Below, piece by piece: positions 6,445 to 30,630 of a stretch of 31,269 nt of DNA. Position 1 is the stretch's first letter, and each line of letters begins with the position of its first letter. A model generated the notes under the pieces. It was not told where the DNA came from. It saw only the letters and a list, made by a program, of their open reading frames with translations, and did not search any database. Location: positions 1 through 31,269 of IMG/VR virus record IMGVR_UViG_3300045988_038873. The stretch is one strand, 5' to 3'. The translations under genes and the position numbers were made by a program. The stretch comes from a virus.

Positions 6445-6980
6445 AAACAAAACTAATAGGTAACTTCATCCGAAAATCAAGAAATGAAGATGGAAACCTA
6501 GAAATAACATTTGAATTAACTGAGCCAATGTACGAAGCATACGCTCAGAACCTTGTAAAAGGGGCGTATAGCGTAGTTATAGATTCAATAAGGTATTTAC
6601 GTACGAATGAGCAAAATCGTCTTATGTGGCATTTAATTAGTGAAATATGCAAAAACGATAATGCTATGTCAAATGATACATGGGACATGTATTGTGAATT
6701 TTTGAGAATGTCAAAAGCATGGTATACATATGTTTCTGTTGTTAAAGAAGGCTATGACGAATTGTGTCGAGCGCATGGAGTTAGAGCAGTACAGGCGTTA
6801 GGTACAGAAATAAGAAATAACGGAAAAGAATTTGTTAATTGTAGAGTATTTCTAGGCTCATCACAAATGGACACAAAACAAATGGGAGTATTAATTGATT
6901 GCATATTAGATTATGCCGAACAACTAGGAATCAGTACTCAATATTATTTAGATAAAGGAATCAAGGGGGAAGAAAAATAA
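6441..6980 (+). CDS. NinB/Orf-like recombination mediator (tentative)
   Basis: The TTG start overlaps the upstream stop. The RTNEQNRLMWHLISEI segment resembles the NinB RS..QN...W motif. Confidence 0.45.
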   Translation: MKTKLIGNFIRKSRNEDGNLEITFELTEPMYEAYAQNLVKGAYSVVIDSIRYLRTNEQNRLMWHLISEICKNDNAMSNDTWDMYCEFLRMSKAWYTYVSVVKEGYDELCRAHGVRAVQALGTEIRNNGKEFVNCRVFLGSSQMDTKQMGVLIDCILDYAEQLGISTQYYLDKGIKGEEK

Positions 6981-7345
6981 AATTTGTAATTAAAGGAAAA
7001 CTAGATGGATTGAATGAATATATTAGAGCTTGCCGAGCCAATCGTTACAAGGGAGCAGAAATGGTTAAAAAGAATGAGCGCTTAGTTATGGCTTATATCT
7101 TACAGGCAATAAATTTTGGTGAAGTTTACGAGGTTAAGAACTATCCTATCAAATTAAATATTGATTGGTATGAATCTGATAATAGAAGGGATATTGACAA
7201 CATTACATTTGCAACTAAATTCATTCAAGATTCATTAGTTAGAACAGGAATACTTGAGGATGATTCAAGGAAATACATTAATCAAGTGAATCATACAGTA
7301 TTTACAGATAAAGAGAATCCAAGGATAGAGGTAGAGATTTTATGA
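6977..7345 (+). CDS. rusA: RusA-like Holliday junction resolvase, apparent ATA start
   Basis: The open frame begins after TAA 6953-6955. The ATA at 6977 lies 6 nt after GGGGGA (6965-6970) and overlaps the upstream stop (ATAA). This restores the KFVIKGKLDGLNEY N-terminus. The track start (TTG 7010) truncates it. Confidence 0.65.
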   Translation: MKFVIKGKLDGLNEYIRACRANRYKGAEMVKKNERLVMAYILQAINFGEVYEVKNYPIKLNIDWYESDNRRDIDNITFATKFIQDSLVRTGILEDDSRKYINQVNHTVFTDKENPRIEVEIL

Positions 7346-7704
7346 GAGAGCAAGAAATGGCAGTAAACGTAGCAAAGCAAATTTACTTTGATGAATTCAA
7401 CTTGTTTTATCAAATTGCAGAAAGAAGCATAGGAGATACAAATTCAAAGGATGTATTTAATGAAGCGTGTACAGTTCATGATATTACCGAAGAATTTATA
7501 TATATGTTAGATGGATGTTATGACTACACAAAAGAGGGATTGTATAGGGTAGGAGTTAAAGCAATATATAAAGCATTGTACAAGCTTGATGCACCTTATA
7601 ACGATATTGAGATAAATTGCTATCTAGAATATATCGAAAAAATCATTGATGAAATCCTAAAGCAAGACGTAGTGCTTGGAGGTGAGCAAAATAGCAGTAA
7701 TTAG
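7342..7704 (+). CDS. Hypothetical protein
   Basis: The ATG overlaps the upstream stop (ATGA). 120 aa. Confidence 0.55.
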   Translation: MREQEMAVNVAKQIYFDEFNLFYQIAERSIGDTNSKDVFNEACTVHDITEEFIYMLDGCYDYTKEGLYRVGVKAIYKALYKLDAPYNDIEINCYLEYIEKIIDEILKQDVVLGGEQNSSN

Positions 7705-8431
7705 AATTATTAAGAACAAAAACTATACAGTGATGAGCAATACACATTTAAAAGATAAACGCTTATCACTAAAAGCAATAGGCTTGTTAAGCGTTGTTCT
7801 TGGCTTACCGGAAGATTGGCATTATACAGTAAATGGATTAGTTGGAATTGTAAAAGATGGGAAAGATTCAGTTGAAAGTGCAATTAAGGAATTAAAAAAG
7901 AATGGATATTTAAGAGTAGAGAAGATATATCCTAATGAAAATAGTAATAGGATTCAATATCAATATACATTCTTTGAGAATCCTCAAGAGGTGGATTTTC
8001 AAACCCTTGAAAATCAAGGTATTGAAAAGCAAGGTGTTGAAACTCAAGTACTTGAAAACCCCTACACTTATAAAGATACTAATAAACAAAATACTAATAA
8101 ATTAAATACTAATACACAAAGTAAACATAAATACGGAGAATATCAACACGTTCTATTAACAGATAAAGAACACACACACCTATTAGATTTATATGGTAAC
8201 TCATTGGATAAACATATAAAGATTCTTGATGAATATATTGAGACATCAGGAAAGAAATACAAGAACCATTCACTAGTGATTCAGAAGTGGGTACATGATG
8301 AATGGATGAAAAGAAATAAGAACAATCCTGTAAAACTTGATTCTAAATTCTATGCACAAGAAAGCAGTCAATCGTATGCAGATGTACATAAGGAAATGGA
8401 AAGGGTTAGAAAGGAAATATTAGGAGCATAG
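7691..8431 (+). CDS. Replisome organizer / DnaD-like replication initiation protein (start ATA 7691 favoured; TTG 7676 possible)
   Basis: Winged-helix N-terminus (NYTVMSNTHLKDKRLSLKAIGLL..KELKKNGYL) and a DnaD-like C-terminus (YGEYQHVLLTDKEH..YKNHSLVIQKWV). GGAGGTGA (7678-7685) lies 5 nt before the ATA. Iterons lie inside the gene. Confidence 0.65.
   Translation: MAVIRIIKNKNYTVMSNTHLKDKRLSLKAIGLLSVVLGLPEDWHYTVNGLVGIVKDGKDSVESAIKELKKNGYLRVEKIYPNENSNRIQYQYTFFENPQEVDFQTLENQGIEKQGVETQVLENPYTYKDTNKQNTNKLNTNTQSKHKYGEYQHVLLTDKEHTHLLDLYGNSLDKHIKILDEYIETSGKKYKNHSLVIQKWVHDEWMKRNKNNPVKLDSKFYAQESSQSYADVHKEMERVRKEILGA
8007..8120 (+). repeat. Two sets of 15-bp-period iterons (candidate phage origin of replication) inside the replisome organizer gene
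   Basis: TTGAAAAnCAAGGTn-like units begin at 8007, 8022, 8037 and 8052. ATACTAATAa units begin at 8076, 8091 and 8106. Confidence 0.6.
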
Positions 8432-8449
8432 AAAGAGAGATAAATAAAT

Positions 8450-8965: not shown

Positions 8966-8967
8966 GC

Positions 8968-10401: not shown

Positions 10402-10731
10402 ATAGAAATGAATTATGAAGAAGTTAAAAAGCATTTTCTATGTGAATGCCAATCGTACACATATTATGAGCAAAAGATAGCAGAGCTACAAAGGGATGAA
10501 GCTATTTATCCATTAAAAGCCGAGCTATTCTTAGCTCATGCAGATTATGCAAGAAGAATGAACTATGTAAAAGACAAATTAAGCCAACTTGATGATACGA
10601 CTCGAACAATGATTGAGTATAGATATATAAAGGGATTCAGTGCAGAAAAGACATCTAATATTGTAGGTTATGCAAGAGAAGAAATTCCAAGAAAGATAAA
10701 CAAGAATTTGAAGAAAGTGCTCACAATGTGA
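10402..10731 (+). CDS. ArpU-family / sigma-region-4-like late transcription regulator (start ATA 10402 or ATG 10408)
   Basis: C-terminal HTH (TRTMIEYRYIKGFSAEKTSNIVGYAREEIPRKINKNLKK), at the last position of the early module. AGGAGG (10388-10393) lies 8 nt before the ATA and 14 nt before the ATG. Confidence 0.6.
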   Translation: MEMNYEEVKKHFLCECQSYTYYEQKIAELQRDEAIYPLKAELFLAHADYARRMNYVKDKLSQLDDTTRTMIEYRYIKGFSAEKTSNIVGYAREEIPRKINKNLKKVLTM

Positions 10732-10740
10732 GCATTTTTT
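10719..10740 (+). terminator. Palindrome GCTCACAATGTGAGC plus T-tract (terminator of the early operon)
   Basis: Hairpin at 10719-10733 followed by TTTTTT (10735-10740), overlapping the stop codon of the regulator gene. Confidence 0.6.
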
Positions 10741-10757: not shown

Positions 10758-10833
10758 AGCAGGATAGAGCAGTAGTAGCTCACTAGTCTTATTAGCTAGA
10801 GGTCGAATGGTGCAAATCCTTCTCCTGCAACCA
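10758..10833 (+). tRNA. Initiator-like tRNA with anticodon UAU (reads AUA) and atypical D and T arms
   Basis: Acceptor AGCAGGA/TCCTGCA has six Watson-Crick pairs and an A1xA72 mismatch. Then TA, D stem GAGC/GCTC (A11:T24) and D loop AGTAGTA. Anticodon stem is CTAGT/GCTAG, with loop CTTATTA (anticodon TAT at 10790-10792). Variable loop is AGGTC. T arm is GAA(T)GG-TGCAAAT-CCTTC. A73 and CCA are encoded. Confidence 0.6.
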
Positions 10834-10917
10834 TGTTTACAAAGCCTATCAGTAAGTCCTTCCCAAATTAGATATTAAATACCAACAATGGCATACAAAA
10901 TTAGGCTTTGATATATT

Positions 10918-10942
10918 ACCGAGCGTTTGTCTCGGTTCTTTT
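10918..10942 (+). terminator. Rho-independent terminator
   Basis: ACCGAG-CGTTTGT-CTCGGT followed by TCTTTT. It lies 19 nt before the strong SD/ATG of the next operon. Confidence 0.7.
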
Positions 10943-10960
10943 AATAATAAGGAGGAGAAT

Positions 10961-11206
10961 ATGGATTCAAGAAAATTTCATGATTTAGCAATCAATGCAG
11001 TATTGCAAGTAAACCAAAATATTGAGGTAAGTGAAATGTTCGTTGTATGGATGTGTAAGACGCTACAGAACAATAAAGCATTAATCGGTGTACATCATTC
11101 ACCCAATTATTATGAGGTAACGTATAACGGCGATAAAAAGGAGTTATACGTTGATGAATACATCAAGAATACAAATACTTGTCTAAATGTAAATGACGCT
11201 CTATGA
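10961..11206 (+). CDS. Hypothetical protein
   Basis: The ATG follows AAGGAGGAGAAT. 81 aa. Confidence 0.55.
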   Translation: MDSRKFHDLAINAVLQVNQNIEVSEMFVVWMCKTLQNNKALIGVHHSPNYYEVTYNGDKKELYVDEYIKNTNTCLNVNDAL

Positions 11207-11730: not shown

Positions 11731-11742
11731 AACTACACCTAA

Positions 11743-12498
11743 TTGAAAATATTTCTAAGTGCATTAGAGGTAAAACGAGGTAAGAAACCATTATCAAGAA
11801 TCTTAGTCGAGCAAGGCATTCAAATGAAATATAACCTAATGTCTTATTACTACCTAAGAAAGAATTTAAATGACGCATATTTCATAAAAGAGAACAGTCA
11901 ATTAGTAATCATAGACAGTGGAGCGCATAGTTTCCAAAAAGGGACAAAAGTTGATTGGGTAGAATATACCAAGCAATACGCAGAATTTATCAAAGAATTT
12001 GATGAGGACAAGGTTGTAGGATATTTTGAAATGGATGTAGACAACATCTTAGGCTATGAAAAGGTATTAGAGTTAAGAAAAATATTAGAATCTGTATCTG
12101 ATAAGATTATTCCTGTATGGCATAAGAACAGAGGAATACAAGACTTCAAAGATATGTGTAAGAAATATCAAGGTAAGGTCGTAGCAATTACAGGATTCAA
12201 GAATGAAGACATTAAAGATGAACAATACATTATGTTTTTGAAATATGCAAAGAAATATAATTGTAAAGTTCATTGTCTTGGTATGACAAGAAAAAAAGTG
12301 CTTGATAGAGTGCCGTTTGATTATTGTGATTCAAGTACATGGGTACAACAATCAGTTTATGGGCGTATCAATGGGCTAGGCAAAGTATCAAGAGAAATGT
12401 CAAGGACAAATAAAGAACAAGTAATGATAGAGAATTATAAGCAATTTATGCAAATGCAAGAAAAATATGAGCAAAAATGGAGGAACGTGAATAAATAG
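11743..12498 (+). CDS. dpdA: DpdA-like DNA-guanine transglycosylase (TGT superfamily)
   Basis: VIIDSGAHSFQKG resembles the TGT DSGGFQ motif. PFDYCDSSTW resembles the second catalytic Asp region of DpdA proteins. It sits next to QueT-like and ParB-like genes. TTG start, with no nearby SD. Confidence 0.6.
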   Translation: MKIFLSALEVKRGKKPLSRILVEQGIQMKYNLMSYYYLRKNLNDAYFIKENSQLVIIDSGAHSFQKGTKVDWVEYTKQYAEFIKEFDEDKVVGYFEMDVDNILGYEKVLELRKILESVSDKIIPVWHKNRGIQDFKDMCKKYQGKVVAITGFKNEDIKDEQYIMFLKYAKKYNCKVHCLGMTRKKVLDRVPFDYCDSSTWVQQSVYGRINGLGKVSREMSRTNKEQVMIENYKQFMQMQEKYEQKWRNVNK

Positions 12499-12946
12499 AA
12501 ATAAGACGATAGCTTTTAATGCAGTAATGTGTGCATTGTATGTTGTAGCAACGACAATTAACCCAATCGGATATGGAGTATTTCAATTTAGGGTTAGTGA
12601 ATTAATGACAGTATTTCCTGTTCACTTCAAAAAAGCACGTATCGGATTGCTTTTAGGAGTAGCAATAGCAAATGCAATGAGTCCATTGGGATTTATTGAT
12701 GTATTCTGTGGGACATTAACGGCAGGATTATTGTATTACCTAATTGATAGACTACCGGTACACAATTACATTAAATACATTCTATATTCATTAGAAGTAG
12801 GATTAATTATTGGTTGGGAATTACAGTTGGTATATCATATGCCATTTGCATTAACATTCTTTACTACATTTATTCCGGAAATGATTCTATGCATTATCGG
12901 TGATTTATTAGCAAAGAAATTAAAGCATTATGTAAATATTGATTAG
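12491..12946 (+). CDS. queT: QueT-family queuosine-precursor (preQ0/preQ1) transporter, apparent ATA start
   Basis: Multi-TM protein with FQFRVSEL and GVAIANAMSPLGFIDVFCGTL motifs. The ATA at 12491 is the first codon after an in-frame TGA and lies 6 nt after GGAGGA (12479-12484). This adds KTIAFNAV to the first TM segment. Confidence 0.7.
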   Translation: MNRNKTIAFNAVMCALYVVATTINPIGYGVFQFRVSELMTVFPVHFKKARIGLLLGVAIANAMSPLGFIDVFCGTLTAGLLYYLIDRLPVHNYIKYILYSLEVGLIIGWELQLVYHMPFALTFFTTFIPEMILCIIGDLLAKKLKHYVNID

Positions 12947-14649: not shown

Positions 14650-16053
14650 ATAGAAACATCTAACACACGTAGACCGTGGTTTCAGAATTACCTAAACGAA
14701 AGAGGGTATTATGTAGACACAAACGCAATTGAGATTATTGAATTGTGCAATAAGTGGTACACAAATACCGAAACAGAATTTCATACGGCATACACATTAA
14801 ATAACGAGGAATACACGTTAGATAAAGCAGACTTTGCAAAGCGTTTATGTGAGGATGACGCAAACTTAATTGAAATCCTAGATATAAACGCAACAGAGGA
14901 CAGTGCTACAAATGACATTATTTCAGACATTCTAACAAAGAATAGGTTCGATGTAATGTATAGGAAACAAGTTGAGCAAATGTCTGCAAATGGTACAGTA
15001 GGAGCTTATGTGACGGTATCTAATGCCGAGATTTATGAAGATGGTTCATTTAGTGGAGGAGAAATCAGAATCAACTATTGTGATTCAATGAATATCCTAC
15101 CATTAACTGTTATTAACGATGAAATTGTGGAAGTGGCTTTTGTTGGAGTAAATTATGAGAAACTAAAGAAAGTATATGTGATGGTCATGTTCTTAAAAGG
15201 ACAAGACGAAAGATACATTGCAGAAACACATTACTTCAAAGATACAGGCGAAGAAATAAAAGACCGTGCTCAGATTGTTCAATTAGATGTTGTAAAGCCG
15301 TTTGCAATTATGAGAAACGCAAAGGTAAACAACTTACAAATGCAAGGTTACGGCTTGCCGAAGATTTGGAGCGCAATTGCTCCATTGAAAACAATCGATT
15401 TAACAATGACAATGTGGAATCGTGATTTGTTGAAATCAGATAAAATCGTTCTTGTGAATGAAGCATTAATGCAGAAAGACGAGAATGGAAAGATTAAGAT
15501 GAATCCACAAATGAAAAAGATATTCGTTCAGTTAGGTAGAGATAAGCTTCCGGAAGAAAAAGCCTTGTGGCAAGAATACAATCCAACAGTTAGAACTCAA
15601 GAGGTTGTGCAATCGTTAGAAACTGCGTTAAGTATCTTATCAATGATGTTTGGATTCGGTACAAAAAAATACACGTTTGAAAGTGGAAGAATCGTAACGG
15701 CTACAGAATATATCGGCGAAAATCAAGACGCAATGAAAGAAGTAAATTCACAACGTAAAGAATCTACTGCATATATTCAAGATATCATTCAAGCAATAGC
15801 ATACTTCTATGAGTTAACACAAGGTAGAAAGCTTAATATTAATTCATTAGACATTGCGATTGATTATGATGATACATATATCGAGGATAAGCAAAGCACG
15901 GCACAAGCGTTAAGAAATGACGCACTAACATTTGATATTCCAAGATTAAAGATTATGTATTTCATGAAACAATACGGATTCACTGAAGAAGAAGCAACTG
16001 AGTTATTAAATGAAGAAATTCAAGATGATGGAGAGGGGGATGACGAAGAATAG
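14650..16053 (+). CDS. Portal protein (SPP1 gp6-like), apparent ATA start
   Basis: The ATA at 14650 lies 6 nt after AGGAGG (14638-14643), one codon (GAA) after the terL stop in the same frame. This restores RPWFQNYLNERGYYVDTNAIEIIELCNKWY. The track start (TTG 14743) leaves a 96-nt gap. Confidence 0.75.
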   Translation: METSNTRRPWFQNYLNERGYYVDTNAIEIIELCNKWYTNTETEFHTAYTLNNEEYTLDKADFAKRLCEDDANLIEILDINATEDSATNDIISDILTKNRFDVMYRKQVEQMSANGTVGAYVTVSNAEIYEDGSFSGGEIRINYCDSMNILPLTVINDEIVEVAFVGVNYEKLKKVYVMVMFLKGQDERYIAETHYFKDTGEEIKDRAQIVQLDVVKPFAIMRNAKVNNLQMQGYGLPKIWSAIAPLKTIDLTMTMWNRDLLKSDKIVLVNEALMQKDENGKIKMNPQMKKIFVQLGRDKLPEEKALWQEYNPTVRTQEVVQSLETALSILSMMFGFGTKKYTFESGRIVTATEYIGENQDAMKEVNSQRKESTAYIQDIIQAIAYFYELTQGRKLNINSLDIAIDYDDTYIEDKQSTAQALRNDALTFDIPRLKIMYFMKQYGFTEEEATELLNEEIQDDGEGDDEE

Positions 16054-16859
16054 CAACTACATATTTTCCATTCGTCTCAAGAAATGGCGATAGATTAGTA
16101 TTATATGACGCTTTCAGAAGATTGTTCTCAAGTTACTTTACAAATGGAGTGTTCGTAGATGATTCTAGTTCAGACCATTTAAGAGTTGAGAAAGCTCAAG
16201 GTTTAACATTAACAGTTAAAGCAGGACGAGCAAATATTAATGGAGCATTCTATTGGCAGAAAGATGACGAAACCATCACATTAGAAAAGAATACTGCTAC
16301 TAAAAGCTACAATATTATTCTTAGATTGAATGATAATGACGCATACAGAAACATTACCTTAGTAGCAAGTGATATCAATGATGGAATTACAAGAAGTGAT
16401 TCTATTTATGATTTAGTACTAGCTACAGTCACAGTCACAGGCAATGCAAGCGAAGTTAAAGGCTCAGATATTACTGATACAAGATTAGATTCTACACGTT
16501 GTGGAGCAGTTACAAGCGCAATTAAGAGCGTACAATCGTTGGATTTATTTACCCAAGTGACTGAGCTATTCAAAGAAATTAAAGCTCAGAATGAATCTGA
16601 AATGAATGCAAATAGAACAGAGTTCAATGATTGGTTTGAAACTGTAAAGGATACGTTAGACGCAAATACGGCAGGAAAGTTATCAAATAGAATTTCAAAT
16701 ATTGAAAAGATGATTATGGAGAACCATTTCACCACAATCTTATTAACAGAAGATGGAACACTAGTAGATGAGAATGGTCATGAGATTCTAGCAGATTGGG
16801 CGTATGAAGTTGATGAAGGTGAAGTAGGTAAAGATTGGACTTACAAGGTGAAATCATGA
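16050..16859 (+). CDS. Tail-fibre/structural protein (XkdV-like N-terminus), apparent ATA start
   Basis: The ATA at 16050 overlaps the portal stop (ATAG), 9 nt after GAGAGGGGGA. The N-terminus ATTYFPFVSRNGDRLVLYDAFRRLFSSYFTNGVF is the recognisable start of this fibre family. Confidence 0.65.
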   Translation: MATTYFPFVSRNGDRLVLYDAFRRLFSSYFTNGVFVDDSSSDHLRVEKAQGLTLTVKAGRANINGAFYWQKDDETITLEKNTATKSYNIILRLNDNDAYRNITLVASDINDGITRSDSIYDLVLATVTVTGNASEVKGSDITDTRLDSTRCGAVTSAIKSVQSLDLFTQVTELFKEIKAQNESEMNANRTEFNDWFETVKDTLDANTAGKLSNRISNIEKMIMENHFTTILLTEDGTLVDENGHEILADWAYEVDEGEVGKDWTYKVKS

Positions 16860-17481: not shown

Positions 17482-17492
17482 GAGGAAAAAGA

Positions 17493-18101
17493 ATAGCTAT
17501 TGAATATTTAGATAAGAGTGGACTAACGCTCTTGATTAGCAAAATTAAATCGGCGTTAGGTGGGAAAGTTGATGTCGTAAGTGGTAAAGGCTTATCGACA
17601 AATGACTATACTAGCGCAGAAAAGCAAAAATTAAGTGGTATCGCAAGTGGTGCTCAAGTGAATGTGATTGAGTCTGTAAAGGTAAATGGTACGAAATTAA
17701 CGCCAAACTCAAAAGCCGTGGATGTTACAGTGCCTACAAAGACATCACAATTAACAAATGACAGTGGATATCAGTCGGCGACGAGCGTTGAGTCAATTAT
17801 CACGGCTAAAGGGTATCAAACGCAATCACAAGTACAATCGTTGATTAATTCGGCAGTCGGTAATATTACATCTATTAGATATAAAAAGGTAACTAGCTTA
17901 CCTGCTACAGGTTCAAATGGTGTAATTTATCTGTTAGCACATTCACATGGAACACAAGATATCTATGATGAGTATATTTGGCTTTCAGAGACAAAGACAT
18001 ACGAAAAGATTGGTAATACAGACATTGATTTATCGGCGTATGTTAAGAAGTCAGAATTAACTGCGATTACTACAAATGATTTAAATACAATGTGGGGTTA
18101 G
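17493..18101 (+). CDS. Tail (or head) fibre protein, apparent ATA start
   Basis: The ATA at 17493 lies 7 nt after AGGAGG (17480-17485). This restores AIEYLDKSGLTLLISKIKSAL. The GKGLSTNDYTSAEKQKLSGI motif is typical of fibre proteins. Confidence 0.65.
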   Translation: MAIEYLDKSGLTLLISKIKSALGGKVDVVSGKGLSTNDYTSAEKQKLSGIASGAQVNVIESVKVNGTKLTPNSKAVDVTVPTKTSQLTNDSGYQSATSVESIITAKGYQTQSQVQSLINSAVGNITSIRYKKVTSLPATGSNGVIYLLAHSHGTQDIYDEYIWLSETKTYEKIGNTDIDLSAYVKKSELTAITTNDLNTMWG

Positions 18102-21636: not shown

Positions 21637-21650
21637 GGAGGATTTAATTA

Positions 21651-22520
21651 ATACCAAATGAAATTGCATTAGCTAAAACGTATGTCTCAAATTTGGATGA
21701 GGTATATAAGTTAGCTTCAGTTACAGGTGATTTAAATGCAGACGCTACAATGGTACGAGCAGGAGCAAACGCAAAAGAAATCATCTATCCACAAATTTCT
21801 GTTAAAGGTTTAGGAAACTACGATAGAAACAGTGGTTATACAGGTAACTCAGTTAAGTTAGAATGGAAAACTGCTACATTCGACTATGATAGAGGAACTA
21901 AAATCTCAGTTGATACACAAGATAACGCAGAATCAATGAATATTGCGTTTGGTATGGCAGGAGCGGAGTTAATGCGTACAAAGGTTGCACCGGAAGCAGA
22001 CGCTTACACATTCGCTAAGATTGCCGGTACAACAGGAATCACAAAGGTTTCAGAAGATTACGAAGGAGCGCAGGCATTCTTAGACGCATTATTAAAAGCA
22101 GTTACTAAGATGGATGAAGATGAAGTTCCTTCCGAACAACGTATCTTGTATTCAACACCAACATTATTAAATAGCGTTAAAGCATTAGATACATACAAAT
22201 CTCGTGAAGCTTTACAAGGATTTGCAAAAATTGTTCCTGTACCTTCAACACGATTCTATACAAAAATTAAATTGTTGAGTGGAAAAGATACAGAGTTAGA
22301 GGGCGGATACGAAAAGGCAGAGGATGGACACGCAATCAACTTCTTAATTGTTCACAAACCTGCCGTAATGAAATGGGATAAACACACCGTTTCAAATGTA
22401 ATTCCGGCAAGCAATAACATTGAATCAGATTCAGATGTACTAAAATATCGTAAATATGGAATCGTTGATGTATACCAAAATAAGGTAGCAGGTATTTACT
22501 TATCTGCTAGTGCTGAGTAA
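21651..22520 (+). CDS. Major capsid protein, apparent ATA start
   Basis: The ATA at 21651 lies 9 nt after AGGAGG (21636-21641), two codons after an in-frame TAA. This restores PNEIALAKTYVSNLDEVYKLAS. The track start (TTG 21693) leaves a 56-nt gap after the scaffold gene. Confidence 0.75.
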   Translation: MPNEIALAKTYVSNLDEVYKLASVTGDLNADATMVRAGANAKEIIYPQISVKGLGNYDRNSGYTGNSVKLEWKTATFDYDRGTKISVDTQDNAESMNIAFGMAGAELMRTKVAPEADAYTFAKIAGTTGITKVSEDYEGAQAFLDALLKAVTKMDEDEVPSEQRILYSTPTLLNSVKALDTYKSREALQGFAKIVPVPSTRFYTKIKLLSGKDTELEGGYEKAEDGHAINFLIVHKPAVMKWDKHTVSNVIPASNNIESDSDVLKYRKYGIVDVYQNKVAGIYLSASAE

Positions 22521-22992: not shown

Positions 22993-23408
22993 TAGGATTC
23001 TTTGAAGATTCAATCACACTTGTAAATCACTACTATGATACGTTAACAAGAGAAGATAGGTTTCAAGCTTCTATACTTGATAAATGTATGTGGAGACAAT
23101 CAACTGTTAGAACTGCAAATGGTAATATTCTGAGCATAGCCACATCCACAAATATTACCATCTTATATCGTGAGGGATATGTTGAACCTTACGCATATGC
23201 AAAACTTTCAAATGATGAGAAACAAAAGCACTTCACATTAAATACAGATAAAACAGATTTCGTATTCTTTGGAGAAGTCAAAGAAAATTTATCTAGTATC
23301 AAGGCAATAAACGAAGCTAAAAAGAAATACAAATGGACAACAATTCAAAGCGTAACAGATTGTACGAATGTCGATATGTTGAAGCATTGGGAGGTTGTCG
23401 GTCAATAG
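22989..23408 (+). CDS. Head closure / head-tail joining protein (by position)
   Basis: The ATG at 22989 overlaps the upstream stop (ATGA). Confidence 0.45.
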   Translation: MIGFFEDSITLVNHYYDTLTREDRFQASILDKCMWRQSTVRTANGNILSIATSTNITILYREGYVEPYAYAKLSNDEKQKHFTLNTDKTDFVFFGEVKENLSSIKAINEAKKKYKWTTIQSVTDCTNVDMLKHWEVVGQ

Positions 23409-23767
23409 GTATCAAAGTTAAACTTGATGTTAAATCACTTCAAGAATTTAAACAATCAAGAGGACTTGAAGAACGTGGACGAGTTCAACAAATGATTGAT
23501 TCTGAAGTCATTAGGCTTATGACCCCCTATACGCCTAGAGACACAGGAGCATTGATTAACTCGGCTACAAGAAACACTCAAATCGGAAGTGGATTAGTAA
23601 AGCAAGGTGGACCAAGTGCTCCATATGCTAGACGGTGGTATTACAACAAAGAGAATGCTCATTTCGTTGGTGGAAAGACAGACCATTGGTTTGAAAAAGC
23701 TATGCGAAATGGTGGAGCAGAGACAATCGCAAAGAAAGCACAACAAATGATAGGAGGTAGTGAATGA
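23405..23767 (+). CDS. HK97 gp10-like tail-completion protein, apparent ATA start
   Basis: The ATA at 23405 overlaps the upstream stop (ATAG), 10 nt after GGGAGG (23389-23394). The track ATG (23333) would overlap the upstream gene by 76 nt and has no SD. Confidence 0.55.
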   Translation: MGIKVKLDVKSLQEFKQSRGLEERGRVQQMIDSEVIRLMTPYTPRDTGALINSATRNTQIGSGLVKQGGPSAPYARRWYYNKENAHFVGGKTDHWFEKAMRNGGAETIAKKAQQMIGGSE

Positions 23768-24183
23768 CAGTATCAAAAGCGTTGATTCAATGGCTTTATG
23801 GCTATGGAAATATACAGATAGATGAACGTATTGAAACAGATGTTTTAGCGCAACAAGCTATCTCTTATGCGTTGTATAAAGAACCTAACGCAATTGTAAA
23901 TACATACATTGATGGTTCTCAAATGCGTACTGAATACTACACGTTTCTAGCACGTAGGAATACACAAATTGAATCAGAAAGACAAGATAACAATGTTTTT
24001 CTAGAAGAATTAGAAAATTGGATTGACGAAAAGAATTTAAGCGGAGAATTACCACAACTAGACGGAAACAGACATTGTGATGATGTTTCCGTTTCAAGTG
24101 GTTTATATCTATACACAAATGAGGATAATCAAGCAGTATATGCATTGACTATTCAAATTAAATACAGAAAGGAGCTTAATTAA
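23764..24183 (+). CDS. Tail terminator-like / minor structural protein (by position)
   Basis: The ATG follows AGGAGGTAGTGA and overlaps the upstream stop. Confidence 0.45.
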   Translation: MTVSKALIQWLYGYGNIQIDERIETDVLAQQAISYALYKEPNAIVNTYIDGSQMRTEYYTFLARRNTQIESERQDNNVFLEELENWIDEKNLSGELPQLDGNRHCDDVSVSSGLYLYTNEDNQAVYALTIQIKYRKELN

Positions 24184-24689
24184 TAGCAACTCAAGGAACT
24201 GAAGTAACTACAGGACAAACAGTCAAGAAGTATATGATTGGATTGTTCTTGCAAATGGGAGAAGGTTACAAGCGAATTAAAAAGTCTACAACTTTAGATA
24301 TTTCATTCAATAGTGAAACTGAAACGTATGACTTTATCGCAGATAAGAACCCAACAGAATCATTAAAGAGTTATTCACCTCAGATTTCGCAAGATTTAAC
24401 AATGATTAAAGGCGAAGATGATTTTGAATACATTTACGAACAAATGATGAAATCCGTACCAAACAACGAAGAAGTAAATACAAAAGCTTTACTTGTATTT
24501 ATGTTTGACGGAGACAAAACTAAAGGCTATAAAGCGTGGGAAGTTGACGCTAAATTAATTTTCGACACATTAAGTGGTGCTGATTCAAAAATCAACTTCA
24601 ACATTAACTTTGCAAGCGACATTCGTGTCGGTACTGCAAGGGTAGCAGATGGAGCAGTAACATTTACAGAAGGCACATCAGAAGTATAA
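24183..24689 (+). CDS. Major tail protein, apparent ATA start
   Basis: The ATA at 24183 lies 8 nt after AAAGGAG (24168-24174), two codons after an in-frame TAA. This restores ATQGTEVTTGQTVKKY. It lies upstream of the chaperone pair and the tape measure. Confidence 0.65.
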   Translation: MATQGTEVTTGQTVKKYMIGLFLQMGEGYKRIKKSTTLDISFNSETETYDFIADKNPTESLKSYSPQISQDLTMIKGEDDFEYIYEQMMKSVPNNEEVNTKALLVFMFDGDKTKGYKAWEVDAKLIFDTLSGADSKINFNINFASDIRVGTARVADGAVTFTEGTSEV

Positions 24690-25630: not shown

Positions 25631-25650
25631 AAAAGGAGGTGGCAAATTGA

Positions 25651-28230
25651 ATATCGGACGGAACATTAAAGTTTGATACAAAGATTGATACAAGTGGTCT
25701 AGAGAATGGAATGAAATCCGTTCATGAAGTTACAAGTGGAGCTACAAATGCTATCAAAGAAACTTCAAAAGCAATCGACAAGTTAGGTTCTGATGGTTCA
25801 AAAGCACCACCGAAGATTAAAGAAAAACTTAAAGATTTAAATGATGAGCAAAAGAATACACAGACAGAAACGCAAGAAACAGGTTCAAAGTTTGATGTAT
25901 TTAAAAAGGTTGGAAACAGTGCCTTAGAATCAATTCAAGGCGGATTTGATGGACTATTAGGAAAGATTCAGAATATTAGTCCGGAAGCTACTGCAATCAC
26001 TGAAACTTTAACAGGATTAGGCGTTGGAGGTGTTGCAGGCGTTACTGCCGTAGCAGGAGCTATCGGTGGTATGGCATTAGCAATTAAAACAGGTGTTAAC
26101 CAAGCTACAGAACTAGATGACGCTATGGCTAAATTTCAAGCTCAAACAGGTGCTTCAAGCAATGAAATGAGCAAATTTAAAAACATTGCTCGTGATGTTT
26201 GGTCAAACAATTTCGGTGAAGATGTTTCAGATGTTGCCGATATGATGGGCAGAGTCAAGCAACAAATGCAAGGCATAAGTGACGTTGACCTAAAGAACGT
26301 GACCGAGGATTTATTAACTTTAAGAGATACATTCGATATGGATGAGAATGAAACTCTTAGAGGTGCTCAACAATTAATGAAGCAGTTCGGAATCACTTCT
26401 CAAGAAGCTTTCGACCTTATGGCTACAGGTGCTCAGAATGGTTTAAACAAATCAGATGAGTTGGGCGATAACATTTCAGAATACTCCGGTAAATTCGCAC
26501 AAGCAGGATATTCGGCAGATGAATATTTCCAATTAATGCAGAATGGATTAGATGGTGGAGCATATAACCTTGATAAAGTAAATGACGCAATCAACGAAGT
26601 TACCACAAGGTTAGTTGATGGAACTATTGAAGGAGCTTTAGATAGTTTTGATACCAAAACACAAGATGTATTTAAGGCATGGCAAGAAGGAAGAGCAACT
26701 CAAAAAGATGTTGTGAATGCGATTGTAGAAGATATTTCAAAGACTACAAATGAACAAGAAAAGTTGAATAAAGCAAGTATTGCATTCGGCACAATGGGAG
26801 AAGATTTCAACTCCGGATTCATTCAGTCCTTAACAACAGTAGGGAACAAATATAAAGATGTAGAAGGAGCAATGGATAAAGTCAAAGAAATTGCAAATGG
26901 TGGCTTAAAGAATGCTTTAAGTGGCTTAGGACGTGCATTTCTTGATTCATTTACTCCAATAGGCGAACTTATTACCCCTATTCTTGCAGGTATCATCGGA
27001 TTGATTACAGTAGCTATACAAGGTATTCAACAAGGATTTGCTAAAGTTGGTGATGTAATTTCAAGTGTGTTAAGCAAGATTGATACAAGTGGAATTACAG
27101 AATTGACAAGTCAAGTTTCAGAGGTGTTAGCTCCTGCTTTTGATGAGGTCAGAAAAGCGATTGACGAAATGAAAGTTGCTCTTGAACCTATTGCAAAAGA
27201 AATCTTAGGTAAAATTGGTAACGCAATTCAAAATGTAGTAAACCAAGCTCAAAAGATTCTTAGCGTAGTAGGACCACCGATTCTAGCAATCATCAAGAAT
27301 ATTATCCAAACAGTTGTCGGTATGATTCCTGTAATAACATCTATCCTTCAAGTTGTTGGAAGTGTAGTAAGTGGAATCATTTCATTTATAAATATGGTTG
27401 TAACGTATGTTGGGACTGCGATTGCGACAATACTAGGATTTATCATGCCTATTGTTCAAATTGTAGCTACAATTGTAGCGAATATTTGGTCTGTAATATT
27501 AACGGTTGCTCAGAATATTTGGAGCAAAGTTAGCGAAGTAGTTACTGCTATTATTGGATTTGTAAGCAATTTGTTTAAAACAGTTTCGGACATCATAAAC
27601 AATATTTGGAGTAAGATTCAAGATTCCATGAACAAGGTAAGAGACAAGGTTCAAGGCGTTATTGATAATATTAATAAATATTTCAATAATGTTAAGAGTA
27701 CTGTTTCTGATGTATTCAATGGCATTTGGTCTAAGGTTCAAGGTGTAATGGACAATGTGGGAAATAAAATTTCAAATGTTTTACAAGGAATACAGAATGC
27801 ATGGAACGGTTTAAAAGGGTTTGTAGGTGGTGTATTCGGTGGAATTGAAGGAGCAGTAGGTTCATTAGTCTCTAGTGTAAAAGGAATGGTAAATGGTGTT
27901 ATCGGTGGCATTAACGGTGCAATAAGTATCATCAACAAGATTCCCGGAGTTCACATTGGAAGAATCCCTAGGCTAGAGCGTGGTGGTGTATTAAAACGTG
28001 GACAAATCGGTTTATTGGAAGGTAACGGAGCAGAAGCAGTCGTACCATTAGAAAAAAATAAAGCATGGATTCGTGCCGTAGCTAAAGATATGGCTCAAAT
28101 CATGCCTAGCGTTACGACAAATAACAATGGACAGACTATCAACTTCTACAATAAAGCGCAAAGTCCGGATGAAATTGCTAGAATGTTACGTATGCAAGCA
28201 AGATATGGATATGGAGGTGTAGTTCAATAG
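25651..28230 (+). CDS. Tape measure protein, apparent ATA start
   Basis: The ATA at 25651 is the first codon after an in-frame TGA, 11 nt after AGGAGG (25634-25639). This restores SDGTLKFDTKIDTSGLENG. The protein is long and helical, with G/A/I/V-rich repeats. Confidence 0.8.
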   Translation: MSDGTLKFDTKIDTSGLENGMKSVHEVTSGATNAIKETSKAIDKLGSDGSKAPPKIKEKLKDLNDEQKNTQTETQETGSKFDVFKKVGNSALESIQGGFDGLLGKIQNISPEATAITETLTGLGVGGVAGVTAVAGAIGGMALAIKTGVNQATELDDAMAKFQAQTGASSNEMSKFKNIARDVWSNNFGEDVSDVADMMGRVKQQMQGISDVDLKNVTEDLLTLRDTFDMDENETLRGAQQLMKQFGITSQEAFDLMATGAQNGLNKSDELGDNISEYSGKFAQAGYSADEYFQLMQNGLDGGAYNLDKVNDAINEVTTRLVDGTIEGALDSFDTKTQDVFKAWQEGRATQKDVVNAIVEDISKTTNEQEKLNKASIAFGTMGEDFNSGFIQSLTTVGNKYKDVEGAMDKVKEIANGGLKNALSGLGRAFLDSFTPIGELITPILAGIIGLITVAIQGIQQGFAKVGDVISSVLSKIDTSGITELTSQVSEVLAPAFDEVRKAIDEMKVALEPIAKEILGKIGNAIQNVVNQAQKILSVVGPPILAIIKNIIQTVVGMIPVITSILQVVGSVVSGIISFINMVVTYVGTAIATILGFIMPIVQIVATIVANIWSVILTVAQNIWSKVSEVVTAIIGFVSNLFKTVSDIINNIWSKIQDSMNKVRDKVQGVIDNINKYFNNVKSTVSDVFNGIWSKVQGVMDNVGNKISNVLQGIQNAWNGLKGFVGGVFGGIEGAVGSLVSSVKGMVNGVIGGINGAISIINKIPGVHIGRIPRLERGGVLKRGQIGLLEGNGAEAVVPLEKNKAWIRAVAKDMAQIMPSVTTNNNGQTINFYNKAQSPDEIARMLRMQARYGYGGVVQ

Positions 28231-29096
28231 ATATCAATAAAGTAAGAGTTATTGTCCGTAGGGATGATGGCAAAGAATTTGAAATCGACAACAAAAGATG
28301 GAGAATACCATCTAGTGATGGTTTAGATGGATTTGATTATGTAGCACCTTCATATACGACTCAAGACAATGCATTCGGAAATGGTGCTAGATTAATCGGT
28401 TCACGTATTCCAACGAAAGAAAGAAGCGTGAAAGCTACATTTAAAGGTTCACTTGAAGAAAAAAGAGAAGAAAGGGAGAAGCTACGACGCTTCTTCCAAT
28501 ATTCTCATATATTTGACGTTATAGTTGAGTATATGGGAGAAAAGAAATATTGCAGAGGAAGGTTATACGCATATAGCTTGCCTACTGTTAACATCTACAA
28601 AGATTTAGAGCTTAACTTTACAATTCTATGCACACAACCTTTGTTGCTTTCATTTGATGATTTCGCAAGGAATATAGCAGAAATTGGTGAAGGTTTAGCG
28701 TTCAATTTTGAAATACCGGAAACAGGCGTAAACTTTGGAACATTTACATTCGCTAGAGAAATCTATATTGATAATCAAGGCGATACAGAAACATACTGTA
28801 GAGCCGTTATTGAAGCATTCGGAGAGGTAACAAATCCGAAACTATTCAATAAAGATAAATATATTCGTGTATTAGATACGCTACACAATGGCGATGTATT
28901 AGAAATTGATTTAGTTTCTGAGCCTATTTCGATTAAAAAAAATGGCGTGAATTGTATTGGGAAAGTTGACAGAACCTCATCATTCAATGATATGACTATT
29001 CAATTAGGTGAGAATATCATAGGATATACGGCAGACAATGGAGATACGAATCTAGCTTGCACAGTTTACTACAATGAAAGGTATTTAGGTATATAG
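28227..29096 (+). CDS. Distal tail protein (Dit), apparent ATA start
   Basis: The ATA at 28227 overlaps the tape-measure stop (ATAG), 9 nt after GGAGG (28213-28217). This adds 67 aa (DINKVRVIVRRDDGKEFEI..GLDGFDY..). The track start (GTG 28428) leaves a 197-nt gap. Confidence 0.65.
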   Translation: MDINKVRVIVRRDDGKEFEIDNKRWRIPSSDGLDGFDYVAPSYTTQDNAFGNGARLIGSRIPTKERSVKATFKGSLEEKREEREKLRRFFQYSHIFDVIVEYMGEKKYCRGRLYAYSLPTVNIYKDLELNFTILCTQPLLLSFDDFARNIAEIGEGLAFNFEIPETGVNFGTFTFAREIYIDNQGDTETYCRAVIEAFGEVTNPKLFNKDKYIRVLDTLHNGDVLEIDLVSEPISIKKNGVNCIGKVDRTSSFNDMTIQLGENIIGYTADNGDTNLACTVYYNERYLGI

Positions 29097-29097
29097 T

Positions 29098-30111
29098 ATG
29101 TCTTATTTCGGATTAGATAAAGATTTCAATATCGTTACACATTTAGCACCTTATAACGTACAGTGGAATAGGCGATATTATGAAACAGGAGATTTCGAGA
29201 TTTATATTGATATAGGGCAGTATTCAAGCGATATTAAATATATTTATTCGACTGATGATAAAGAGCTAGGAATCGTAGAAATACCGCATTATTCCGTTTC
29301 AAACAACACGAAACAAATGTTGCTAAAAGGCTCTTTCTTTGAAAAGATTCTAGCAGATGATTGTATTTATCCTACGTTCTCAAGCAGTGGAAAAATTGTT
29401 GATGTAGTAAAAAAGCTATTAGACAAGTATTGCTCATGGAAAATGGGATATAGATATGATGAATCCATTACCGATAGAGTAGATTTTCAAGAAACAGGAG
29501 CAAACCTTGACGAGAAGCTTTATGAGTTGTTATATCCGTTAGAATTGTCTTTCCGCATAGAATATGACTATGTGTCAAGTACGTTCACATTCGTGTTGTA
29601 TCGTGGTCGTGACTTGACTCAGAACAATGCAGATGGAAACAACTTTGTTACATTCTCTACAGAGTTTGGAAACATTGAAGAACCGGACGTTATGATTGAT
29701 TCTAGTAAATACAAGAACTATGCGATTATTTGTGGTGAAGGACAGTCAGAAGAGCGTATTTATGTAGAATATGACGCTAGAATAGATAAGAATGAAAGAA
29801 TTAAAAAATTGTTCGTAGACGCACGTTCTGAGCGTATGGGGGACGATGTGACACTTGATGAATATAAAAAGGTACTTATTCAGAAAGGAATTGAAAAACT
29901 AGCAGATTGTCAAATTCAAGAAAATGTGAATTTCGGATTGAATACTGATTCATACGAATACAAAGTTGATTTTGATTTAGGTGATAAAGTTGATGTTATA
30001 GTAGCAGATATTGGACTAGTAATGACTGCGAGAATTAGAAATATATTTGAAGTCATTAAAAGTGGATATAGAACCTTAGAATTAGAGGTTGATAATTTAA
30101 AAATCATGTAA
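29098..30111 (+). CDS. Tail-associated protein (siphovirus Gp37-like / Tal N-terminal domain)
   Basis: N-terminal pattern YNVQWNRRYYETGDFEIY. Assigned by that pattern and by position after Dit. Confidence 0.6.
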   Translation: MSYFGLDKDFNIVTHLAPYNVQWNRRYYETGDFEIYIDIGQYSSDIKYIYSTDDKELGIVEIPHYSVSNNTKQMLLKGSFFEKILADDCIYPTFSSSGKIVDVVKKLLDKYCSWKMGYRYDESITDRVDFQETGANLDEKLYELLYPLELSFRIEYDYVSSTFTFVLYRGRDLTQNNADGNNFVTFSTEFGNIEEPDVMIDSSKYKNYAIICGEGQSEERIYVEYDARIDKNERIKKLFVDARSERMGDDVTLDEYKKVLIQKGIEKLADCQIQENVNFGLNTDSYEYKVDFDLGDKVDVIVADIGLVMTARIRNIFEVIKSGYRTLELEVDNLKIM

Positions 30112-30123
30112 GGAGTGAATTTA

Positions 30124-30630
30124 ATAGAAAAGAAAAATGGAGGATTTAAACAAATAGCAAGAAGTATGTTTTTTCTAGATAAGATTAATGCAATGTGTGG
30201 CGTAGCCGTAGCTGTATTAACATACGTATTAGGTGAGCATTGGTATTTATTTGCATTCTTCTTATTTATGAATGTAGTGGATTATATTACAGGGTGCATG
30301 AAGTCGGCAATCAATCACAAAATCAATAGCAATAAAGGATGGATTGGAGTTCTAAAAAAACTAAGCTATTGGATTATGATTGTAGTTGCGTTCACATTCA
30401 GTGCATTTCTAGTGGAAGTAGGAAAAATTCTAGGAATTGATTTTCACGTGTCTACATTGTTAGGTTGGTTTGTGTTAGCTTCGCTATGTATTAATGAATC
30501 TCGTAGTGTTATGGAGAATTTATTACAATGTGGTTACAAAGTACCAAAAGCATTAACTAAAGGATTAGAAGTAGCAGATAAACTCATTAACGAAGAACAA
30601 GACAATGACGAATCAAGTACCTTGGAATAA
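30124..30630 (+). CDS. Holin (phage_holin_4 / LL-H, TcdE-like). Start ATA 30124 favoured; alternatives are 30115 GTG, 30154 ATA and 30166 ATG.
   Basis: It has TM helices and the motif MNVVDYITGCMKSA..NSNKGWIGVLKKLSYW. AAGGAG (30110-30115) lies 8 nt before ATA 30124. A second GGAGG (30139-30143) lies 10 nt before ATA 30154. Confidence 0.7.
   Translation: MEKKNGGFKQIARSMFFLDKINAMCGVAVAVLTYVLGEHWYLFAFFLFMNVVDYITGCMKSAINHKINSNKGWIGVLKKLSYWIMIVVAFTFSAFLVEVGKILGIDFHVSTLLGWFVLASLCINESRSVMENLLQCGYKVPKALTKGLEVADKLINEEQDNDESSTLE

Follow-up and report, generated by a model that had tools for sequence, protein, structure and literature searches.

The stretch of DNA considered here, IMG/VR record IMGVR_UViG_3300045988_038873 (31.3 kb at its full length, ~33% G+C, hereafter the window), represents a prophage of siphovirus type from a Holdemanella-like member of the gut Erysipelotrichaceae. 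Two of its features are the subject of this work: a set of genes that appear to begin with ATA behind a Shine-Dalgarno site (SD-ATA), and a tRNA of initiator type that carries the anticodon UAU. After the integrase and the leftward repressor region come, in rightward orientation, the early, packaging, head, tail, and lysis genes (Table 1). Approximately 13 of the ~47 prophage genes begin with ATA; in thirteen lytic-direction genes, a strong Shine-Dalgarno (SD) site precedes the ATA by 5–11 nt. Canonical starts are used by the integrase and in the repressor region, such that the ATA starts are confined to the rightward, lytic-direction genes. TAA, TAG, and TGA all end open frames in the window, and thus there is no stop-codon recoding.

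The assignment to a Holdemanella-like host is made on the basis of the host gene neighbourhood together with the integrase at the start of the window. The first gene in the window, at 3-455, is a host gene. In uninterrupted host contigs, it sits between rplQ/a methyltransferase and ecfA1-ecfA2-ecfT-truA, and the 90% cluster of its product includes a protein named Holdemanella biformis by NCBI; the prophage is integrated beside the ribosomal-protein/ecfA region of this H. biformis-like bacterium. Megablast with 21 kb against the INPHARED phages returned zero matches, and in tblastn against INPHARED the capsids are all <52% identical (best 51.5%), indicating that there is no close cultured relative. 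An exact look-up of the window integrase gave no match.

Table 1. Prophage features in window coordinates, with the start codon and the evidence attached to each
Feature	Coordinates	Strand	Start	Remarks
Integrase	564-1715			followed by the leftward repressor region
RusA-like resolvase	6977..7345	+	ATA	SD GGGGGA 6965-6970; phrog_1682 aligns from residue 2
Replication initiation/DnaD-like protein	7691..8431	+	ATA	SD GGAGGTGA, 5-nt spacer
Putative late transcription regulator	10402..10731	+	probable ATA	SD AGGAGGTG, 6-nt spacer
Hairpin and T-run	10718..10740	+		just before the tRNA, where the putative regulator gene ends
Initiator-type tRNA, anticodon UAU	10758..10834	+		Rfam RF00005 match 10758-10830; encoded CCA to 10834
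Terminator-like hairpin and T-run	10918..10945	+		downstream of the tRNA, before the packaging/structural operon
DUF6275 protein	10961-11206			cargo module after the tRNA
Queuine tRNA-ribosyltransferase/DpdA-like protein	11743-12498			phrog_887
QueT-family transporter	12491..12946	+	ATA	SD GGAGGA 12479-12484
Portal protein	14650..16053	+	ATA	SD AGGAGG 14638-14643; ATA in 44/44 relatives
Head protein (phrog_1220)	16050..16859	+	ATA	overlaps the portal stop as ATAG
Structural-module protein, function unassigned	17493..18101	+	ATA	SD AGGAGG 17480-17485
Major capsid protein	21651..22520	+	ATA	SD AGGAGG 21636-21641
Head-tail connector/minor head protein (phrog_556)	23405..23767	+	ATA	overlaps the upstream stop as ATAG
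Probable major tail protein (gene order only)	24183..24689	+	ATA	SD AAAGGAG 24168-24174
Tape measure protein	25651..28230	+	ATA	SD AGGAGG 25634-25639; ATA in 32/32 relatives
Distal tail protein (Dit)	28227..29096	+	ATA	overlaps the tape-measure stop as ATAG
Holin (Phage_holin_4_1)	30124..30630	+	ATA	two plausible SD-ATA candidates, 30124 and 30154, ten codons apart

An initial annotation, made from the letters of the window, had proposed ATA starts for ten of these genes and named an SD site for each. All ten ATA codons and all ten SD strings are found exactly where they had been placed, with spacers of 6–11 nt, and in each gene the ATA stands at or near the beginning of the open frame upstream of the first ATG, GTG, or TTG. 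The overlap of the start with the upstream stop is also present, as ATAA at 6977 and as ATAG at 16050, 23405, and 28227; at 24183, the ATA abuts the upstream stop (TAATA). Among the candidates that had been left as ambiguous, 7691 equals the main ten in strength, those at 10402 and 30124/30154 are plausible, and 3823 and 5914 remain ambiguous. Two of the product names had to be changed. The protein encoded at 16050, formerly a fibre protein, matches “head protein” PHROGs instead, and the gene at 17493, the other supposed fibre gene, has no assigned function.

The N-terminal segments that lie between the ATA codons and the first canonical codons had been proposed to belong to the proteins. Homologues do possess these segments, and family profiles align from residues 2–7 counted from the ATA. 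PHROG profiles align from residues 2–5 of the 7691 protein (ATA in 4/4 relatives) and from residues 2–7 of the 16050 head protein (ATA in 43/43). The capsid aligns to phrog_422 over residues 3–288 (profile 3–294 of 297) and the 17493 protein to phrog_24103 over residues 4–200 (profile 4–195 of 197), the start of the latter being polymorphic among relatives (18 ATA, 6 ATG). In the portal, homology to the portals of the ATG-started clade extends from residue 12, which is 20 residues before the first canonical codon (TTG, residue 32). Position 1 of the QueT Pfam profile aligns to residue 7, the first ATG being residue 13. The sole family match of the 24183 protein, phrog_3099 (no assigned function), places residue 10 at profile position 4; the first ATG is residue 18, and relatives have 30 ATA and 1 ATG. 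The N-terminus of the tape measure protein, ISDGTLKFDTK, resembles MANDGELQFKTQ and MADGSVTIDTKL of ATG-started homologues. The N-terminus of Dit likewise resembles ATG-started homologues; phrog_33 aligns from residue 20, and ATA is found in 28/28 relatives. The gene at 23405 has ATA in 35/35 relatives, and a homologue in L042 has ATG at the aligned position 1.

The evidence at the two remaining loci is of a different kind. The 10402 gene has a weak Sigma70_r4 match and ATA in 27/27 relatives, and an alternative ATG is located two codons downstream; the gene just upstream of the tRNA is also an SD-ATA gene in the two other phage lineages described below. In the holin gene, relatives have ATG at 30124 in 3/27 cases and at 30154 in 1/27. 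The gene may be of the dual-start holin/antiholin kind, with ATA serving as both starts.

In the capsid gene, as in the 23405 gene, the Met of homologues aligns with the ATA codon. Out of 51 capsid loci in IMG/VR with a readable start, 35/35 close relatives (91–97% identical) have ATA behind AAGGAGG, and 16/16 distant relatives (47–57% identical) have ATG at the aligned codon. The ATG-started N-termini read MPNTIALAKNYV or MANNIALAK, as compared with the ATA-started IPNEIALAKTYV. Across the clade formed by the window phage and its close relatives, start and internal ATA codons change differently. The start sites (n = 11) change to ATG at 4 and to ATT/ATC at 0, whereas internal ATA codons (n = 62) change to ATT/ATC at 29 sites and to ATG at 0 (Fisher p = 3e-4 and 2.4e-3). 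Conversely, the ATG starts at 12960 and 18352 have ATA variants in some relatives. On the basis of this difference, ATA behaves as an ATG-equivalent at start positions and means Ile inside genes.

Three other accounts of these codons were considered and rejected. A genome-wide reading of ATA as Met is incompatible with internal ATA codons that swap with ATT/ATC and never with ATG. A sequencing or assembly error, by which the codons would be misread ATG, is excluded by eight independent ENA/Logan assemblies, all of which retain the same ATA codons. Finally, G-to-A miscalls caused by DpdA/QueT DNA modification were discarded by reasoning, since the prophage is integrated and such an effect would not stay at start codons. 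Taken together, the alignments and substitution patterns make it highly probable that the ATA codons are the true gene starts. Public gene calls shorten these genes; the capsid, for instance, is listed with 275 aa and the portal with 436 aa.

The number of SD-ATA starts was assessed with a strict test, which requires an ATA behind an SD of at least 5 nt, located upstream of every ATG, GTG, and TTG in frame, with no canonical codon among the next 8 codons. In the window, this test returns 8 ATA matches (7 real genes and one nested frame), while each of the control codons ATT, ATC, AAA, GAA, AAT, and ACA gives 0–1, which places the ATA pattern far above chance. The same test finds 0 SD-ATA starts versus 36 canonical starts in 40 kb of host DNA, and 1 versus 72 in seven relatives that lack the tRNA. 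The called host genes (n = 29) start with ATG in 28 cases and GTG in 1. Apparent host “ATA starts” that emerge under looser counts were rejected: they are ATA-ATG doublets in which the spacer to the ATA is too short and the ATG is the real start. Thus, the host background that the initial annotation had asked to be counted is nil in the sampled host genes (29 called genes; 40 kb).

The tRNA lies just downstream of the 10402 gene and is flanked by two hairpins with T-runs (Table 1). It scores 48.8 bits against RF00005 (gathering score 29). ARAGORN calls no tRNA in the window, a failure that is attributed to a bulged T-stem base and to the G at position 55. The acceptor end has an A1xA72 mismatch, G2:C71, C3:G70, and A73, and the D stem GAGC/GCUC provides A11:U24. 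The anticodon stem is composed of C27-G43, U28-A42, A29-U41, G30-C40, and U31-G39 and closes the loop CUUAUUA, which contains the anticodon UAU and U37. The variable loop is AGGUC, the T loop is UGCAAAU, and the T stem has one extra, bulged base. In a promoter scan, the sequence just before the tRNA contained no promoter-like site, and the count for the region is at chance level.

Of the clade loci in which the sequence reaches at least 4.5 kb upstream of the terminase gene, 30/30 contain the tRNA, at a distance of 0.86–3.9 kb from that gene, and the intervening cargo is mosaic. Its 5′ 47 nt are identical in 27 clade contigs, and most of the variation falls on the T loop and on the bulged base, which is U, C, or A. 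C31-G39 is restored in one variant, and the anticodon stem of another, UCGGU/GCCGA, is fMet-like. The copy in L191 (2168-2242) shares the acceptor stem of the window copy, but its T arm is normal and its D loop contains GG. The two copies differ at both loops: the window copy combines the D loop AGUAGUA (no GG) with the T loop UGCAAAU (G55) and the bulge, and the L191 copy combines AGUGGUG with UUCAAAU and no bulge. These differences may reflect a coupled change in the tertiary contact between D loop and T loop.

A search of IMG/VR and metagenomes with a degenerate pattern, consisting of the initiator D arm plus UAU, gave a second lineage (L088/L157). Its tRNA has C1xA72, a normal T arm, and the same anticodon arm, GGU-CUUAUUA-GCC. 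The 10.3-kb contig of this lineage holds 7 SD-ATA matches and 3 ATG starts; the SD-ATA genes include TerS (IAKGKYKEW), portal, and capsid (IANSIALSKNYV). A third lineage (L271-274), reached via a capsid search from the second, has G1xA72, the arm CCAGU-CUUAUUA-GCUGG, and 6 SD-ATA starts. In contrast, its sisters L275, L276, and L279 (capsids 82–84% identical) and L277 and L278 (62%) have no UAU tRNA and use ATG at the orthologous starts, and no credible ATA start was found in L275-L279. The ATG-capsid relatives of the window phage (L035-052) also have no UAU tRNA, and ATA starts occur in them at noise level only. By capsid identity, the phages with the tRNA and ATA starts are interleaved with those that have neither and use ATG. 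In IMG/VR, 39 contigs contain the anticodon-arm signature, and each of them belongs to one of the three lineages; a pattern scan of ~185,000 species-representative genomes did not find the phage tRNA, returning only six fMet-type genes with C34T. The 5-kb loci centred on DUF6275 contain too few ATA-start genes to inform the co-occurrence. In L017 (IMGVR_UViG_3300029219_000010, 43 kb), the capsid has an ATA start, none of the tRNA patterns gave a match, and the 10 kb upstream of the capsid contain no tRNA. This phage either carries a variant tRNA further upstream or is an exception to the co-occurrence.

An alignment of the clade copies, the sister-lineage tRNAs, a phage CAU initiator-type tRNA, and two canonical fMet-type genes has standard pairs in 94.6% of its pair cells and compensatory changes at ten pairs. 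Position 1:72 has no Watson-Crick pair in any of the 9/9 sequences that cover it, and the mismatch differs by lineage (AxA in the window, CxA in L088/L157, and GxA in L271-274). G2:C71, C3:G70, A11:U24, and G30:C40 are invariant, with the D stem conserved in 10/10 sequences. Identity to a canonical fMet-type gene is 78% for the L027 variant, which has the fMet-like anticodon stem, and 67% for the window copy.

Initiator tRNAs carry A11:U24, whereas elongators have pyrimidine11:purine24, and A73 is a further determinant for the formylase (methionyl-tRNA formyltransferase). The principal formylase determinants are the 1x72 mismatch with pairs 2:71 and 3:70, and among the three G:C pairs of the anticodon stem, G30 is the most crucial, natural au/GC/gu variants of this stem being found in mycoplasmas (PMC5389676). 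The window tRNA agrees with tRNA-fMet in the unpaired 1:72, in G2:C71, C3:G70, and A73, and in A11:U24. It departs from tRNA-fMet in the anticodon, which is UAU rather than CAU in all copies, and in lacking the full set of three G:C pairs. An elongator tRNA-Ile(UAU), of the Mycoplasma mobile or Bacillus subtilis tilS-suppressor type (PMC3919564), would share the anticodon, but its paired 1:72 and purine 37 are absent in all three lineages. Given the mismatched 1:72 and the lack of A37, the description as elongator tRNA-Ile fits less well than that as tRNA-fMet. The most apt description of the tRNA is thus a body of initiator type that carries the anticodon UAU and an unconventional anticodon stem.

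TRNAs that share some of these traits occur elsewhere. L035, L037, and L039 (9260-9331, 8839-8918) encode an initiator-type tRNA(CAU) ~0.7 kb upstream of an ATG-started capsid, with a G1xG72 mismatch, A11:U24, and three G:C pairs; a skipping-rope RNA (RF02924) lies beside it in L035 and L039, and a RAGATH-28 RNA is found in L045 and L049. In the more distant phages L247 (2335-2407) and L251/L252 (2301-2377), a tRNA(CAU) lies just upstream of DUF6275, as does the window tRNA. The anticodon stem CUAGU and the T loop UGCAAUU of the L251/L252 tRNA are like those of the window, but U:A is paired at its 1:72. The 5 kb examined of L247, L251, and L252 showed no ATA starts. Canonical fMet-type tRNA genes altered only by a C34-to-T change (UAU) are scattered over genome contigs (L091-L096) and metagenome contigs (L163, L171, L178, L180, and L186); most retain the three G:C pairs and A37, and their sources include an Arsenophonus endosymbiont, Arthrobacter, a Collinsella metagenome-assembled genome, and Roseobacter. 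No SD-ATA starts are evident in L186, a 96-kb gut contig of 34% G+C. UAU tRNAs with an initiator-like D arm and A37 are also encoded on the unrelated contigs L080 and L087 (64% G+C), L153 and L190 (37%), and L151 and L188 (28%). Those of L153/L190 have C1xA72, and those of L080, L087, L151, and L188 have a U1:A72 pair; L080 and L153 have no clear SD-ATA starts.

The sequence context of the starts provides a further connection between the tRNA and the mRNA. The -1 base is A at 14/14 ATA starts in the window as compared with 14/30 ATG starts (p = 4.8e-4). Pooled over the three lineages, it is A at 25/26 ATA starts versus 18/38 ATG starts in the same phages (p = 2.8e-5); one L088/L157 site, 1923, which is directly followed by TTG, was dropped from these counts, leaving 6 SD-ATA starts in that lineage. 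In the relatives that lack the tRNA, A precedes 39/90 starts. Across the clade, the -1 A is invariant at 11 late ATA sites, and the -1 base varies at 7/14 ATG starts. On the tRNA side, U37 and the closing pair U31:G39 are common to all three lineages, while the acceptor and T arms have diverged to 75–77% identity. As A(-1) is complementary to the conserved U37, it is reasonable to infer that the two would pair, extending the codon–anticodon duplex to a four-base helix of 5′-AAUA-3′ with 3′-UUAU-5′ (U37 to U34).

The base after the ATA is biased as well. The +4 base is G at 20/26 ATA starts and at 10/38 ATG starts of the same phages (p = 1e-4). ATAG occurs at 9/14 window sites, and in three of these the TAG doubles as the upstream stop.

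The initial annotation had proposed that the ATA-started genes depend on the UAU initiator-like tRNA, and the proposal is supported by the initiator hallmarks of the tRNA and by its co-occurrence with SD-ATA starts in three lineages. The full mechanism of tRNA-dependent ATA initiation is likely, as far as sequence comparison can tell. The phage tRNA would descend from a bacterial initiator tRNA in which UAU replaced the CAU anticodon. It would be aminoacylated and, because the formylase determinants are retained, presumably formylated; the 1x72 mismatch would keep it away from elongation factor Tu (EF-Tu) and out of elongation, and it would be placed directly in the 30S P site. Perfect pairing of UAU with AUA would then allow the SD-ATA genes to be initiated efficiently only with the phage tRNA present, and the U37:A(-1) pair probably offsets the weakness of an all-A/U codon–anticodon duplex. 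The best guess for the initiating amino acid is Ile as the most likely, with Met as a possibility. In Bacillus subtilis, a tRNA-Ile with unmodified UAU binds AUA strongly and AUG weakly on B. subtilis ribosomes and supports the growth of cells lacking tilS (PMC3919564). A UAU anticodon can thus work in a Firmicute.

If the phage tRNA also reads AUG via U:G wobble, ATG-to-ATA changes would be near-neutral in its presence. Such drift would explain the mixture of ATG and ATA starts and their polymorphism, and it would make the tRNA indispensable. Near-neutral drift with lock-in of the tRNA would fit the observed pattern better than a precise timing device.

Several points weigh against tRNA-dependent initiation. 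U37 is very unusual, as tRNAs that read A-initial codons normally carry A37 modified to N6-threonylcarbamoyladenosine (t6A). The anticodon points to isoleucyl-tRNA synthetase as the charging enzyme; the body of the phage tRNA is without the identity pairs of E. coli tRNA-Ile, and methionyl-tRNA synthetase strongly requires C34. The three consecutive G:C pairs (29:41, 30:40, and 31:39) are lacking, the window having A29:U41, G30:C40, and U31:G39 and a clade variant G29:C41, G30:C40, and U31:G39, such that only the middle pair is invariant overall. Moreover, the third window pair, U31:G39, is the reverse of the natural G31:U39 (PMC5389676). The window copy is irregular in its T-stem bulge, in G55 for U55, in a D loop without GG, and in its rejection by ARAGORN; the L191, L157, and L271 copies have normal T arms. 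With respect to timing, the ATA-started genes at 6977 and 7691 belong to the early region and lie upstream of the tRNA. A rule that only late genes start with ATA was rejected on account of these same two genes (RusA and replication). Internal ATA use is higher in the phage, at 14.8 per 1000 codons versus 6–10 in sampled host genes, which allows an added elongator role for the tRNA. Finally, AUA starts behind an extended SD in Staphylococcus aureus reach 10–30% of AUG expression with the normal initiator (10.1101/2025.06.19.660503). On account of this result, some initiation at the phage ATA sites is possible without the phage tRNA.

The strongest rival explanation draws on the last two points. 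It holds that the host fMet-tRNA(CAU) reads the ATA starts inefficiently, helped by the strong SD sites, in the mode of the infC-, ccpN-, and citZ-type AUA/AUU starts of Firmicutes, and that the phage tRNA is an unrelated elongator tRNA-Ile(UAU) serving ATA usage. The S. aureus starts require no special tRNA, internal ATA use in the phage exceeds that of the sampled host genes ~1.5–2.4x, and ARAGORN labels the sister-lineage tRNAs “tRNA-Ile (tat)”, all of which accord with this explanation. It is nevertheless unlikely. Attenuating starts would be odd for the capsid, the probable tail tube, and the portal, and the explanation does not predict that SD-ATA starts occur only in phages with the UAU tRNA while close sisters without it use ATG at the same genes, nor that the -1 A is complementary to U37. 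The 1x72 mismatch in three lineages, A11:U24, the fMet-type body, and the absence of A37 argue against EF-Tu-dependent elongation and against an origin from tRNA-Ile.

A second alternative is termination–reinitiation, i.e., translational coupling at a near-cognate ATA that needs no matching initiator tRNA. This is suggested by the five genes in which the ATA overlaps or abuts the upstream stop (6977, 16050, 23405, 28227, and 24183). However, no such overlap exists at the capsid (14-nt gap) or at the genes at 17493, 25651, 7691, and 10402, all of which have a strong SD of their own; coupling would also not favour ATA over ATT, ATC, or CTG, and the strict link with the UAU tRNA would be left unexplained, such that the odds of this alternative are very small. 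The last alternative, in which the genes start at the downstream ATG, TTG, or GTG and the upstream stretches with their SD-ATA are untranslated leaders, is the choice of automatic public gene calls and can be given almost no credence, as profiles and homologues align through the upstream segments up to the ATA, Dit would lose 67 domain residues by starting at its first canonical codon (GTG, residue 68), ATA is replaced only by ATG in relatives, and the downstream codons are mostly without an SD site.

Full-text literature searches found no natural non-CAU (UAU) initiator tRNA in a phage and no systematic ATA starts in phages. Initiation by the UAU tRNA would thus constitute a new kind of system, conditional on experimental confirmation. 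The closest natural concept is the stop-codon recoding by phage suppressor tRNAs that is said to have been described by Ivanova in 2014 and Borges in 2022 for crAss-like, Lak, and other gut phages. There too, a phage tRNA gives a codon a meaning that it does not have in the host, and phage genes, structural ones among them, depend on that tRNA; in the window phage and its sister lineages, a matching tRNA co-occurs with SD-ATA genes that presumably depend on it. In contrast to recoding, in which an in-frame stop is read in elongation, the codon affected here is the start codon, the proposed site is the P site, the tRNA is of initiator type, and internal ATA stays Ile.

Animal mitochondria initiate at AUA via a tRNA-Met with a modified C34. 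In mitochondria, however, AUA is Met internally and one tRNA serves both initiation and elongation, whereas the phage keeps internal ATA as Ile and has a separate UAU initiator-type tRNA beside the CAU initiator of the host. The closest functional analogue is found among engineered E. coli initiators with swapped anticodons, which include an amber tRNA(CUA) and GAC, GAA, and GAU variants. Like the phage system, these combine an fMet-type body with an altered anticodon and a complementary non-AUG start behind an SD, forming an initiation channel orthogonal to AUG. They are laboratory constructs, whereas the phage system is natural, occurs in three lineages, and concerns essential, highly expressed genes; the phage system also has the additional U31:G39 and U37 in the tRNA and a conserved -1 A in the mRNA. 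An i-tRNA(AAC) in E. coli is a further engineered example (bioRxiv 10.1101/2021.05.25.445580).

Attenuating AUA/AUU starts (infC; S. aureus ccpN and citZ) resemble those of the phage in having AUA behind a strong or extended SD in a low-GC Firmicute (10.1101/2025.06.19.660503). They occur in isolated genes of low or regulated expression and involve no dedicated tRNA; in the phages, a dozen genes per genome, including those for the most abundant virion proteins, have such starts alongside a dedicated tRNA, and in the window the thirteen genes include capsid, portal, and probable tail tube. The phage tRNA(CAU) of L035, L037, and L039 shares the 1x72 mismatch (GxG there) and A11:U24 with the window tRNA and belongs to phages with related capsids. 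It differs in its CAU anticodon, its three G:C pairs, and the ATG start of the capsid, as opposed to UAU, U37, and U31:G39 in the window.

The tRNA is directly followed by a cargo module. It consists of the DUF6275 protein and, at 11227-12946, a ParB-N-like protein, the DpdA-like protein, and the QueT transporter, and it resembles a 7-deazaguanine DNA-modification set. The module is present in only part of the clade, as indicated by the varying distance from tRNA to terminase. No SD is detectable for the large terminase (13312-13328), whose apparent start is a TTG, at 13312 or 13321, overlapping the 3′ end of the gene for the small terminase. It is not among the ATA cases; the small terminase is ATA-started in both sister lineages.

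The canonical starts on the lysogeny side and the ATA starts in lytic-direction genes fit a lock on lytic functions. The individual roles that can be imagined, namely silencing in the lysogen, timing of expression, and independence from the host initiator, are speculation. A more far-reaching reading is that of natural orthogonal initiation, in which a virus initiator tRNA, probably charged with formyl-Ile, would read the four-base A-AUA via U34-A35-U36 and U37. This reading is tentative and somewhat improbable, and the same reserve applies to its corollary that essential replication, lysis, and virion genes would be translated only when the phage tRNA is made. If it is true, the system could keep the lytic genes of the lysogen under a safety lock, or it could insure the phage against host defences or toxins by which the normal initiator tRNA is destroyed or withheld. 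VapC-type nucleases cut at an anticodon-loop site around which the altered positions 31, 37, and 39 lie.

In practical terms, between a quarter and a third of the genes of these phages, among them those for capsid, portal, tape measure, and Dit, are shortened by standard gene callers, and the phage family is common in human-gut metagenomes. If dependence on the tRNA is true, the system would offer a natural test of the features required of an initiator, as one G:C pair, any 1x72 mismatch, U37, and a bulged T stem are apparently enough. It would likewise bear on the long-debated extension of anticodon pairing to the -1 base and would provide synthetic biology with an evolved orthogonal initiation pair. 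For the phages themselves, it would suggest a new route to gate lytic genes or to evade attack on initiator tRNA, and it would be the first natural case of a virus owning a start codon, beside the stop-codon recoding of gut phages.

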